From an uncultured delta proteobacterium (GTDB lineage: Bacteria; Desulfobacterota; Syntrophia; Syntrophales; Smithellaceae), in NCBI GenBank assembly GCA_963753975.1, contig CAVWEH010000002.1, forward strand, positions 416,001 to 480,000: a DNA stretch of 64,000 nucleotides. Direction: 5' to 3'. The notes beneath the pieces were generated by a model. The model saw only the letters and a list, made by a program, of their open reading frames with translations, had not been told where the DNA came from and did no database searches. Position numbers and translations under genes: made by a program. Positions 10,573-14,431 of this stretch are shown here, in pieces. Each line of letters begins with the position of its first letter. Position 1 is the stretch's first letter.

Positions 10573-10601
10573 ATGATCTCCTGTCTGCATTATTTTATGA
10601 T

Positions 10602-10669
10602 ATGTAGTTGTCAATCAAAGTTGTGATTTCGACTTTATCTACTTCGTTTAGTTTTATTTTGTCCGGCAT
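10602..10669 (-). pseudogene. 5' stub of an MBL-fold hydrolase-like gene (copy 1)
   Basis: Reads MPDKIKLNEVDKVEITTLIDNYI, then Ser and stop; 63/68 nt identical to 11781-11848. Confidence 0.6.
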
Positions 10670-10778: not shown

Positions 10779-11609
10779 CTACTTTTTTAATTTATCCAAA
10801 CCAAATGTGTTGCTCATCATTTTATCCAGCATATTCACAGGCAGCTTCTTGAGAAACGGCAGACGCGTGGATTGCTTGCCGATGCGAATGATTTTGGGAA
10901 TCTTCGTCTGGAAAAGTTTGTCAATCAACACTTTGGAAAATTCTTCCACCGGCGTCGGATCTTTCTGTGAGGAGACTGCCCGCGCTTTGATGTAACCGGC
11001 CAGCGGCGCGTAAACAGAGTCTTCACATTGCCCGATATTTTTTGCGGCAGCATCCCCGAAACTGGATTTGATCGCGCCGGGTTGCACAGTGACAACGGAA
11101 ATACCAAAAGGCGCAAGCTCCACCCGCAGAGAATCCGAAAGCAACGATACCGCGGCTTTCGTCGCGCAGTAGGCTCCGGCAAAAGGTGTGGCGCAAATAC
11201 CCGACACGCTGCTGATATTGACGATAAGACCCGAGCGCTGCTTGATCATCTGCGGAGCAACAGCCTTGGTTAAAGCGGCAAGCCCGATGACATTGGTTTC
11301 AAACTGACGCCTCAAGTCTTCCATGGAAAGATCAATCACCGGCCCGATGAGTGCATAACCGGCATTGTTCACCAGCACATCAATTTTCCTGGCTTTGGCA
11401 ATCACCTCTTCCACGCAGGCATTAATGGATTTTTGATCGGTCACATCTAACGCCGCAATTTCCATCCTTTCTTTTTTCAGATGGCGGATCGTCTCCGGTT
11501 TTCGTGCGGTGGCAAATACCTTGCACCCGCGGGAAGCAAACTCTCTGGACAGAGCCAGCCCGATGCCCGATGAACAACCAGAAATTAATACAACTGAATT
11601 TTTATCCAT
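10779..11609 (-). CDS. Short-chain dehydrogenase/reductase (17-beta-HSD-like)
   Basis: ISGCSSGIG, LVNNAG, YCATK catalytic motif. Confidence 0.93.
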   Translation of the reverse strand: MDKNSVVLISGCSSGIGLALSREFASRGCKVFATARKPETIRHLKKERMEIAALDVTDQKSINACVEEVIAKARKIDVLVNNAGYALIGPVIDLSMEDLRRQFETNVIGLAALTKAVAPQMIKQRSGLIVNISSVSGICATPFAGAYCATKAAVSLLSDSLRVELAPFGISVVTVQPGAIKSSFGDAAAKNIGQCEDSVYAPLAGYIKARAVSSQKDPTPVEEFSKVLIDKLFQTKIPKIIRIGKQSTRLPFLKKLPVNMLDKMMSNTFGLDKLKK

Positions 11610-11780
11610 GATTCTTCTCCTCATCTTGCCATTGCGAGCCCGCCGTAGGCGGATGTGGAAATCTTATTGATCTAACTGCCCCGGAATTACAAATATCTTC
11701 AAGACATTTTTTAAATACGGCTCCGATCCTACTTACCTTCGTCATTACCGTCCCGCATCTCATCAAACGCTACACCACCA

Positions 11781-11848
11781 ATGTAGTTATCAATCAACGT
11801 TGTGATTTCGACTTTATCTACTTCGTTTAGTTTTATTTTGGTAGGCAT
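11781..11848 (-). pseudogene. 5' stub of an MBL-fold hydrolase-like gene (copy 2)
   Basis: Reads MPTKIKLNEVDKVEITTLIDNYI, then diverges from copy 1 at the same codon. Confidence 0.6.
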
Positions 11849-12078: not shown

Positions 12079-12106
12079 TTGACATCAGTCGATATAGGGC
12101 TAAATT
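12079..12106 (+). promoter_or_regulatory. Possible upstream sigma70 promoter
   Basis: TTGACA (12079-12084), 16-bp spacer, TAAATT (12101-12106). Confidence 0.35.
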
Positions 12107-12158
12107 TATCTAATAAATACAATATATTGTGTCTGTACAACAAAATTAAAAAAATAGT

Positions 12159-12186
12159 TTGACAAATATTTAGAAATCTATATAAT
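12159..12186 (+). promoter_or_regulatory. Consensus sigma70 promoter of the retron locus
   Basis: TTGACA (12159-12164), 16-bp spacer, TATAAT (12181-12186). Confidence 0.75.
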
Positions 12187-12194
12187 AAAGTCAA

Positions 12195-12665
12195 TCAAGC
12201 CGACGATTCGTTGGTAGCTCTTTGAAAATGAAACGGAGATATTTATGTCCGAAATTTGGCATCTCCTCGATTCCAGGTCAAGTGAGACCTTCCCTGTTTT
12301 ATAGGGGATAACAGACTGAGAAATCAGTCACCACATGAAAATGTGGTTTTTTAAAAGGCCATGGTGATGCGAGGTCCGTTGCCTATGATTCTGTATAACG
12401 CAGTCTGAACTGCGCAGAAAAGCATAGACAGCAGTCAATAAAGATTATTTTCTTGACGCCCCGTACAACCTGTCGCCACCGGTGGTTCACCCATGGATAA
12501 AATTGCGACGATTGAACAGCCGGCGGCCATAGCATGGCCGCAACCCGTGCGGGCAAAGGAATCAAAGAGCGTTCTGATTGATTTTCTTTGAAGTGAGGCG
12601 ATGCCATTTTATCAGGTGATAAGATCATTGCCTCCCTAATGCAGGGTAATCTAGAGAAAGGAGGC
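12195..12665 (+). ncRNA. Putative retron msr-msd / structured leader RNA
   Basis: No plausible + strand ORF; dense hairpins including two GAAA tetraloops; closing pairing of 12217-12225 and 12271-12274 with 12558-12570; upstream of a retron RT operon. Confidence 0.7.
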
Positions 12666-12675
12666 CATAAACCAA

Positions 12676-12957
12676 ATGATAAAGAAGGACATAAAAACAA
12701 TTCGGGCAGATATGGAGATTGTCCGAGAGAGCCAGAATATTTTATTCCGGCTAAAATTTTCAATCGCCGTTTCTACAAGATCTAGTTTGAAAGAATATCT
12801 TCGAAAAGCTAAAAGACAGTTAGTTATTAGTTTCGTGATGTGTATTCTAAAGATGTCAGCAAATTCGATTGTAAATGCAACATCAACAGTGTTTTCCAAA
12901 GCCATTTCCGTCCTTCTAGAAATATGGCTTAGGATTAAACACGAACCGATCTTATAA
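12676..12957 (+). CDS. Small basic/hydrophobic protein (93 aa), putative retron effector
   Basis: AAAGGAGG SD at 12657-12664; lies between the structured RNA and the HTH gene; hydrophobic C-terminal half. Confidence 0.6.
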   Translation: MIKKDIKTIRADMEIVRESQNILFRLKFSIAVSTRSSLKEYLRKAKRQLVISFVMCILKMSANSIVNATSTVFSKAISVLLEIWLRIKHEPIL

Positions 12958-13002
12958 AAACCTGCACGGTTTTTTAAAACAATCCTCAATGAGGTGATAT
13001 TT

Positions 13003-13332
13003 ATGAAAGTAGGAGAGATAATTAAATTGATCAGGACCAAACGGGGGATATCCCAAAAGGAAATGGCAGACCAGTTTGGAATATCGCAAAATTACTTATC
13101 GCTTATAGAAACTCATAAAAAGAGACCAAGTATAGAAACAATCGACACTTTTGCAAAGAAATTTGGCATATCAAAAGAAGCCCTTTTGTTCGTTACGTCT
13201 GAAATACCTTCAGAGCTGGACGAAAATGCTAAACAGGATTTTAAAAAATTACAAGATAATATCCTTTATCTAATACTATTCGATGCCAACCGAGGTATTA
13301 ATTGTCTGCCGCGCGCCCAAAACGCCATCTAG
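13003..13332 (+). CDS. XRE-family helix-turn-helix protein
   Basis: IKLIRTKRGISQKEMADQFGISQNYLSLIETHKKRPS is a classic HTH_3 pattern; GAGGTG SD before ATG 13003. Confidence 0.92.
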   Translation: MKVGEIIKLIRTKRGISQKEMADQFGISQNYLSLIETHKKRPSIETIDTFAKKFGISKEALLFVTSEIPSELDENAKQDFKKLQDNILYLILFDANRGINCLPRAQNAI

Positions 13333-14180
13333 AGATTAGAAAACTCGATCATCTTTCTCTTCGTCTAGGTATTGCCCTGGACGAGCTCATCGCGGTAGCT
13401 AGTTCAATAAACCAATATTATATAGTTCGAAAGCTCCGGAAAAAAAACGGCGGCTTTAGGACAATAAGTGCGCCGCAGCCTCGTTTGAAAAGAATTCAAC
13501 TTAAAATACACAAGCTGCTAAAGGAGATTATTATAGACGATGCAGCTCACTGCGGAATTAAGGGTCGTTCAAACCTAAGTAATGCAAAGCAACACACTAA
13601 TAAACCAATGTTGCTGAACCTTGATTTAAGTAGTTTTTTCCCAAGTATTTCGCATCATCTAGTTTATAACATGTTTGTGCATTCCTTGAAATGCTCTCCA
13701 GCGGTATCTCGTATACTTACTCGTCTGTCTACTTACAATGGTGAAGTGCCTCAAGGTGGGCCAATGAGTACTGACATTGCAAATTTGATTTGCTGGAAAA
13801 TAGATAAGAGGTTATCAGGGCTGGCACGCAAGAACAATATCACATATACACGTTATTGTGACGACCTCTCTTTTTCAGGACAAACAATTTCTGAGCCATT
13901 TATTACCAAAGTGAAGGGAATAATTTCAGAAAGCGGTTTCAAATTGAACGCGGAAAAAGAATCTTTTCACAAAAGAACTAACTCCACAAGGATTGTTACG
14001 GGACTGTCTGTTAACGGCCCTCGTCCCAAAATTCCTAAATCAGCTTTAAAGAAACTACGCGCCGAAATACATATATTTGACAAATATGAATCTCATAGTT
14101 TAACAGAACAGTTATTGGAAAAAAGACAGAAGCAGATACGAGGAAAAATATCTTACAGAAATTATATAGAAAAGAATTGA
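13302..14180 (+). CDS. Retron-type reverse transcriptase (292 aa)
   Basis: KKNGGFRTISAP, region X NAKQH (NAxxH), LDLSSFFPSI, VPQGGPMS, YTRYCDDLSFS, region Y IVTGLSVN; TTG start with GAGGT SD. Confidence 0.93.
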   Translation: MSAARPKRHLEIRKLDHLSLRLGIALDELIAVASSINQYYIVRKLRKKNGGFRTISAPQPRLKRIQLKIHKLLKEIIIDDAAHCGIKGRSNLSNAKQHTNKPMLLNLDLSSFFPSISHHLVYNMFVHSLKCSPAVSRILTRLSTYNGEVPQGGPMSTDIANLICWKIDKRLSGLARKNNITYTRYCDDLSFSGQTISEPFITKVKGIISESGFKLNAEKESFHKRTNSTRIVTGLSVNGPRPKIPKSALKKLRAEIHIFDKYESHSLTEQLLEKRQKQIRGKISYRNYIEKN

Positions 14181-14431
14181 CGAATCTAATTCGGGGTATG
14201 CATCTATATTGCGTTTCCATCTTCATTCACTAAAAAGCGTTACAATATTAACTCAATCTTTTCATCTACTTATACTCGCAATTTTCTTTATTTCAATTCT
14301 TTTTTTGCACTAATAAATTACAAAGGTATTATCAATTCGTCCCAAATATCGCTTCTCTTTCCTTCTTGACCCTTCCAAAATCCTTTGCCAGCCTGCAAGG
14401 CAGGAACTAACAAAAAAAGGAGGAATTTTTT

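Follow-up and report, generated by a model that had tools for sequence, protein, structure and literature searches.

The window analysed here, a 64,000-nt stretch comprising positions 416,001-480,000 of the forward strand of contig CAVWEH010000002.1 (GCA_963753975.1), belongs to an uncultured delta proteobacterium (Desulfobacterota; Syntrophia; Syntrophales; Smithellaceae). It contains, in this order, a promoter, an RNA and the genes for SP, an HTH protein and a reverse transcriptase (RT), which is the layout of a Type VI retron:

12159..12186, + strand: sigma-70 promoter TTGACA-16-TATAAT, matching the consensus at 12/12 positions; RNA start probably near 12193
12657..12664, + strand: SP Shine-Dalgarno (SD) AAAGGAGG, read from the sequence
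12676..12957, + strand: SP, 93 aa, probable toxin by its place in a Type VI locus; 15 homologs in the equivalent position share 27-35% identity
12984..12994, + strand: CCTC-AAT-GAGG hairpin over the HTH ribosome-binding site; CCTC-N3/4-GAGG in most rows of alignment A2
13003..13332, + strand: Cro/C1-type HTH; best PADLOC match HTH_VI (E 3e-23), Pfam HTH_3
13302..14180, + strand: retron RT, 292 aa; best PADLOC match RT_VI (E 2e-79)

A promoter-like site occupies the same position in most homologs. The HTH frame is open from a GTG at 12994, and the ATG at 13003 agrees with the homolog starts; the gene overlaps the start of RT and encodes a Cro/C1-type HTH as in cluster 2_1. The first-pass annotation had read the RNA as that of a retron, and the downstream RT bears this out with intact NAxxH (residues 94-98; N94-A95-K-Q-H98), YCDD (185-188) and VTG (232-234; V232-T233-G234) motifs; its nearest solved structures in the PDB are retron RTs. 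The RT_VI score lies a mere 15 bits over that of RT_III-A. In a quick tree of 110 rows drawn with no outgroup root, the group of the window (SH-aLRT 97, including L038, L258 and L259) forms a separate branch, joined to the Vpa2-like and Sen3-like groups at a fork that the tree does not resolve, and a branch with support of 91 sets apart 26 retron RT rows without an HTH. Sequence comparison lends moderate support to placing the RT in clade 3. A 414-aa relative, P0028, has HTH domains fused to the RT (46% identity). Membership in Type VI is almost certain for this locus, which does not constitute a new class of system.

SP is evidently a conserved gene. It is predicted to form two helices (2-31 and 35-88), and no fold was assigned because the confidence of the AlphaFold model is low (pLDDT 66.9). 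Searches with SP of Pfam, PADLOC, Atlas and Foldseek-PDB returned no match. Across the family, 0/16 members matched PADLOC at E 0.1; control SPs from L245, L251, L190 and L144 do match PADLOC SP_VI models. By the PADLOC comparison SP falls in none of the described clusters (cl2075, 2760, 3272 and 3897). Cluster membership is not required, however: the SPs of the 'Large' lineage also lie outside these clusters, as the text of one preprint describes (bioRxiv 10.64898/2026.04.27.721009), and the SP of L242 likewise has no PADLOC match. SP appears to be a new family within Type VI retrons.

The retron cassette is accessory. Its GC content is 37.5% versus 44.2% for the genome, where it is single-copy; the best other match to it in 300 same-order genomes has 32-33% identity, and a same-genus locus, L280, lacks the cassette, its two short flanking elements being separated by about 57 nt. 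A plasmid search gave a best identity below 60%, with top rows at 30-38%. A 60-nt element is found at 10601-10660 and 11781-11840 (97% identical), flanking an SDR gene at 10779-11624; it has just these two copies in the genome, and another marks the retron-free site in L280. A 35-46 nt element lies at 14260-14312, just 3' of RT, with four more copies on contigs C4 and C5 and one in L280. These two kinds of element form the bounds of the cassette. In the host genome (95% complete) there was no match to recC and none to recB over the cut-off, so the trigger may differ from RecBCD inhibition. By the accounts in their preprints, each of the two characterised Type VI systems responds either to recombination proteins of phages or to inhibition of RecBCD.

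A contig scan with a single sequence as the query found no loci, but an alignment of 29 RTs used as the query succeeded, yielding 21 loci with RT identities of 44-56%. Seven were set aside: L036, L037, L117 and L124, where the upstream DNA is too short or unrelated (L036 has no HTH in its 325 nt); L112, which has the 3' part only; L122, whose 5' RNA is replaced; and L114, identical to L034. The order RNA-SP-HTH-RT recurs in 14/14 close loci that have the whole upstream region, and the named loci among them are Desulfobacterota. Together with the window these make up the 15 loci referred to below; swap tests used 10 of the 15 rows, avoiding near-copies, and alignments A3 and A5 used 13. Across loci, the RNA measures 685-813 nt between its inferred start and that of HTH. 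L122:1-500 is a natural leader-less allele, which keeps SP-HTH-RT and the anti-Shine-Dalgarno (anti-SD) hairpin, the promoter and 5' RNA having apparently been replaced. L259 (reverse strand, about 685-2358), the sister of L038, carries RNA, SP and RT with no HTH ORF separating the two genes. In L119, L121 and L258, an ORF that looks integrase-like by eye from its translation adjoins the cassette upstream of the RNA.

The transcript is predicted to be a hybrid RNA of ~790 nt, about 12193-12980, which carries the SP gene and of which 12195-12592, the region outlined by the first-pass annotation, is the 5' half. Folding of that region is more stable than chance would give (MFE -134.5 kcal/mol, z -5.68, 0/100 dinucleotide shuffles as good), as is that of the extended 12193-12995 (z -8.81, 0/20 shuffles as good), and every short motif quoted in the annotation was found where it had been placed. 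The 5' domain comprises:

12199..12215, + strand: 5' stem-loop SL0, counterpart of the essential Retron-Sen3 5' stem-loop; pair probability 0.89-0.97
12217..12225, + strand: invariant GCTCTTTGA, 5' arm of an a1/a2-like helix; present in 15/15
12275..12347, + strand: four short msr-like hairpins, probably for RT recognition; all 15 loci fold four (z -2.1 to -5.6)
12357..12544, + strand: variable region, a long branched stem and shorter hairpins, probable msd template; 104-205 nt over the 15 loci

SL0, absent from the first-pass structure, has 4 pairs that are 100% paired over 13 rows, 2 of them changed on both sides. The short 5' hairpins had been taken for msr, and they are indeed conserved, msr-like and covarying: in SL0 and the four hairpins together, 20/26 pairs changed on both sides, a level that 0/500 shuffles reach and from which slid controls fall to 4-7, although this test leans in favour because the structure was derived from the same sequences. 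RNAalifold missed hairpin 3 on A3 owing to misalignment, and per-sequence folding recovered it. With the region folded alone, mean pair probabilities were 0.86 for AGGTC/GACCT, 0.82 for CCCTGT/ATAGGG, 0.99 for GACTGA, 0.97 for ACCACAT, 0.88 for GTCAA/TTGAC, 0.76 for GCGGCCAT and 0.88 for GCTCTTTGA/TCAAAGAGC, and the long stem at 12378-12432 was present in MFE and centroid both here and in the extended fold; the CCATGG outer helix (12359/12496) had a pair probability of 0.00. An msd at ~12355-12557 fits the variable stem region behind the hairpins, the likely template, which is longest in the window among the 15 loci and in most homologs is a long stem followed by a hairpin (z -0.1 to -6.4).

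A covariance model of the 5' domain matched only Type VI loci among 79 sources, with a single match in its own genome. The model finds L258 (42 bits), which was outside the training set, and weakly matches all five enterobacterial Sen3-like loci, L245-L248 and L250 (E 0.01-0.05); it had no match among the 79 sources to L239, L240 and L242, which are called Vpa2-like from their SP size and RNA length. The window gave 0 matches to Rfam.

The first-pass annotation had closed this RNA with a split 13-nt inverted repeat, and one half of it endures: GCTCTTTG/CAAAGAGC is complementary in 15/15 loci. The TTCC/GGAA half is not conserved (cognate mean -2.2 versus shuffled -1.5 kcal; permutation 5082/20000; pair probability 0.41), and the GGAGAT/ATCTCC hairpin said to be looped out between the halves is a 6-bp stem in the window only, with a pair probability of 0.39; its swap test gave 205/20000, yet with a cognate energy of -4.4 versus -3.7 kcal when shuffled. 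Complementarity of GCTCTTTGA to the CAAAGAGC site at 12563-12570 extends over 5-9 bp in 15/15 loci (cognate -10.1 versus shuffled -3.9 kcal), with no covariation of this helix within the close clade (3700/20000). In L038, L258 and L259, which were not used to define the helices, a 7-8 bp complement of the 5' arm with compensatory changes lies at -102, -94 and -103 from the SP start, respectively; complements this short can also occur by chance, so it is by their position that these lend support.

The inner end of the closing helix is the canonical place of the branching G. Once the TTCC half is dropped, G12224 is the base at that end and hence a candidate. It is invariant in 15/15 close loci, with the base opposite differing in 4/15; the position is also G in L038, L258 and L190, U in L259, A in the Sen3-like L247 and C in L141. 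G12276, the branching G originally proposed, is an unlikely branch point because it is a stem base paired in 13/13 rows, with A-U in L111. We tentatively regard G12224 as the better candidate, with somewhat less than even odds that it is the branch point. Neither Type VI preprint, as far as its text was searched, maps that point (10.1101/2025.10.22.683967; 10.64898/2026.04.27.721009).

An RNA end near 12592 does not fit the data. Covarying helices run into and beyond the SP coding sequence, and no terminator-like site was found at 12592. Folding the longer transcript, up to the HTH start, removed the split closure from the nested ensemble (0.00 and 0.04) in favour of a 17-nt repeat, 12257-12273/12590-12606, that straddles the proposed boundary. 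We compared cognate with swapped partners in 10 representatives by 20000 permutations, in windows picked after viewing the sequences and with statistics that ignore kinship; mismatched controls gave 12069 and 4614 of 20000. Several long-range helices that the first-pass annotation lacked (P-start, P-CDS, P-close, IR1/IR2 and anti-SD) emerged, with these strands:

12228..12240, + strand: leader strand of P-CDS, partner 12762-12773 in the SP coding sequence; swap test 0/20000
12242..12250, + strand: leader strand of P-start, partner 12687-12695 (SP codons 4-7); swap test 1/20000
12257..12273, + strand: 5' strand of P-close, which closes the msr/msd arm, partner 12590-12606; swap test 0/20000
12545..12553, + strand: IR1, partner IR2; swap test 0/20000, cognate the best partner in 10/10
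12554..12590, + strand: hairpin with CAAAGAGC (12563-12570), 3' arm of that a1/a2-like helix, in its upper part or loop; swap test 2/20000
12590..12606, + strand: switching strand, pairing with 12257-12273 or with anti-SD 12628-12635; swap tests 0/20000 and 4/20000
12628..12636, + strand: anti-SD; SD pairing 44/20000, 5.6 expected bp
12961..12969, + strand: IR2, behind the SP stop codon, partner of IR1

P-CDS has a cognate energy of -16.6 versus -10.7 kcal for non-cognate partners, in a register that in the window is shifted relative to the other 9 representatives. Leader-CDS pairing recurs in L038 and L259 (0/200 shuffles each) and is less clear in L258 (19/200). P-start contributes 9.1 expected bp to the window ensemble and is absent in L031. 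P-close is the longest inverted repeat in 12100-13100 and reaches -16.8 kcal or better in 12/15 loci; it is weak in L032, L034 and L035, where the hairpin at 12554-12590 is also absent or weak. The 5' strand of that hairpin contains AAAGGA, repeating the SP SD, and a 6-8 nt SD-like repeat stands in the same register in 8/15. IR1/IR2 has 6 positions with at least 2 Watson-Crick pair types among 12547-12554 and neighbours, and is not significant in the distant loci L038, L258 and L259 (48, 172 and 119 of 200 shuffles). The covariation of P-start, P-CDS and IR1/IR2 points to an extended structured transcript in which the SP gene is embedded. Three further candidates were rejected: pairing of IR1 with the anti-SD region, which is weak (668/20000); the pairing in the MFE of 12217-12225 with the HTH ribosome-binding region, where homologs have a local hairpin instead; and a putative ORF of 19 codons in the leader, at 12245, which together with its GGAGATATTTATG/GGTGATATTTATG repeat is window-specific.

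Two cognate-specific partners for strand 12590-12606 imply that the RNA adopts at least two states. The two pairings of this strand compete in the ensemble, with 9.0 expected bp for P-close versus 3.3 for the anti-anti-SD helix (12595-602/anti-SD). Folding was nested only, and the program does not model pseudoknots, in which helices as short as these crossing ones could coexist. In the nested MFE (-246.5 kcal) the leader and anti-SD cover the start of SP, leaving the SD unpaired at 0.19 and the start region at 0.36. Forcing the a1/a2-like helix or IR1/IR2 brought in the anti-anti-SD helix and gave MFEs of -240.1 and -240.5, a cost of about 6 kcal, or 8-10 in ensemble energy; unpairing rose to 0.45 and 0.37 for the SD and to 0.68 and 0.82 for the start region, respectively. 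Blocking the template region in silico left the SD shut (unpaired 0.14-0.22), so removing the template does not by itself account for activation. The nested ensemble of L120 has no long-range helices, and L032, L111 and L115 favour the open pairing at rest.

These models suggest that SP is probably repressed at the RNA level. We hold it nearly as probable, and somewhat better than an even prospect, that the RNA is a Type VI hybrid RNA whose leader/anti-SD switch gates both SP translation and priming. In the resting state, the leader and anti-SD would bury the SP ribosome-binding site and first codons; this fold would keep GCTCTTTG off CAAAGAGC, or permit their helix only as a pseudoknot, and HTH and RT would be bound as in Retron-Vpa2. 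Phage infection would then shift the RNA to a fold with GCTCTTTG/CAAAGAGC and IR1/IR2. The RT would prime, most likely from G12224, and copy from about 12562 back through the variable stem, a predicted length of about 200 nt in the window and 115-178 nt in homologs. With 12590-12606 capturing the anti-SD, SP would be translated and the cell would arrest (abortive infection).

Two characterised systems bear on this reading. Retron-Sen3 (Type VI cl2075, 10.64898/2026.04.27.721009) shares, by its published description, the order ncRNA-SP-HTH-RT, a conserved 5' stem-loop directly preceding the 5' repeat, a long variable stem as candidate template, an IR1 at the 3' end of that stem pairing with an IR2 behind the SP stop, a sequestered SP ribosome-binding site and two predicted conformations. 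In contrast to the Sen3 element, described as lying within about 280 nt, the window has ~480 nt from inferred start to SP start, and it has four short hairpins before the template. The partner of its 5' repeat is a site of its own, ~110 nt before the SP start; in the Sen3-like L247 the 5'-repeat complement lies in the ribosome-binding site or first codons. Relative to the Sen3 description, the leader in the window lineage pairs 60-95 nt into the SP gene, the SPs are 78-96 aa with no SP_VI match, the RT is a separate branch, and the window's host has no recC match and none to recB over the cut-off.

Retron-Vpa2 (Type VI 'Large', 10.1101/2025.10.22.683967) shares, as its preprint describes, a single structured hybrid RNA that holds both template and SP coding sequence, a ribosome-binding site and start region in stems, and a 3' end that pairs back to the first arm. 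The RNA of the window is about 790 versus about 470 nt there, the predicted template about 200 nt versus an msDNA of 63/86 nt, and SP 93 versus 55 aa, and the 5' domain is closer to the Sen3 type than to the Vpa2 type. The conserved 7-nt loop-to-loop direct repeat described for Vpa2 (msd loop/riboregulator loop) was not found among the 15 loci; only the AAAGGA stem repeat was (8/15). By eye, the RNAs of L239, L240 and L242 (enterobacterial Type VI, SPs of 50-51 aa) contain a GGGCGA direct repeat, possibly the one reported for Vpa2. Of the 40 viral-contig loci L191-L230, most carry Type VI HTH-RT cassettes that belong to the Vpa2-like branch; several lie between phage tail genes. With canonical msr-msd RNAs, as outlined in PMC7736814, the window RNA shares a terminal repeat around short msr hairpins and a long msd stem, together with NAxxH and VTG in the RT; it differs from that description in having four hairpins and not one to three, in including the effector gene, and in an invariant a1/a2-like helix of 8-9 bp that crosses other conserved helices.

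Translational repression inside the hybrid RNA has been shown for Vpa2 (10.1101/2025.10.22.683967). For Sen3, by the account in its preprint, SP is constitutive and control comes after translation from a protein antitoxin (10.64898/2026.04.27.721009). A Sen3-like explanation of the window, distinctly less likely in our judgement than an RNA switch, would accordingly have ssDNA and SP made constitutively and HTH acting as protein antitoxin, with the crossing helices serving as folding intermediates or as a scaffold, one pseudoknotted RNA fold for an RT-HTH complex, and merely dampening SP translation. SL0 and IR1/IR2 are Sen3 features; the 5'-domain model weakly matches L245-L248 and L250, and no Vpa2-like loci, the SP of L245 being a PADLOC SP_VI (E 4e-39); and the described Sen3 model has a sequestered ribosome-binding site with SP nonetheless constitutive. 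The crossing helices, moreover, span just 8-9 bp, and as the transcript lengthens it adopts the a1/a2-like fold first, with P-close prevailing later. However, P-close and anti-anti-SD share 12590-12606 and are both cognate-specific, which argues for at least two states, the nested ensemble leaves neither IR1 nor either a1/a2 arm especially free, and the SP of the window is of a different family.

Far less probable is the stand-alone msr-msd of the first-pass annotation, ending near 12592 with the split 13-nt closure and branching at G12276: it is the MFE of 12195-12592 alone, is favoured for transcripts ending at 12575-12592 or 12640, and has G12276 as G in 14/15 loci, but two of its elements (TTCC/GGAA and GGAGAT/ATCTCC) are not conserved, G12276 is paired in 13/13 with an A-U swap, and covarying helices extend past 12592, where there is no terminator-like site. 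Equally improbable is a mere cis-regulatory toxin leader that the RT does not copy, or an inactive locus: most of the strong covariation concerns the SP translation start and there is no Rfam family, yet the RT motifs are intact, the RNA model matches Type VI loci alone among 79 sources, and Vpa2 and Sen3 are both described as making RT-dependent ssDNA from the equivalent RNA.

A literature search found no paper on this lineage, although the preprint supplements (the Vpa2 Fig S4 covariance model and the Sen3 tree) may include such loci. No ncRNA was originally identified for Type VI, according to successors of Mestre et al. 2020 (PMC7736814), and in the literature searched Type VI retron RNAs are characterised in just two preprints, of 2025-2026. 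As described there, the two disagree on mechanism, translational control for Vpa2 versus a protein antitoxin for Sen3, and their text leaves the priming site and RNA switch unmapped. New here are the SP family, an RNA about 1.7 times the length of that of Vpa2 and a host with no detectable RecC. The lineage gives a helix-by-helix covariation map, with two mutually exclusive anti-SD pairings and a candidate priming helix, which makes both questions, that of the priming site and that of the switch, accessible to single and compensatory mutations. More speculatively, and on balance with doubt, the loci may belong to a Type VI lineage, centred on Desulfobacterota and so far undescribed, whose single RNA switch couples priming with toxin translation and would work with a trigger other than RecBCD inhibition, given that the host shows no RecC. 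In such a coupled switch, the invariant 8-bp priming helix would arise in the very fold that frees the SP ribosome-binding site, and the resting fold would block both. If true, this would explain the absence of basal msDNA in some Type VI retrons and would tie reverse transcription to SP synthesis.
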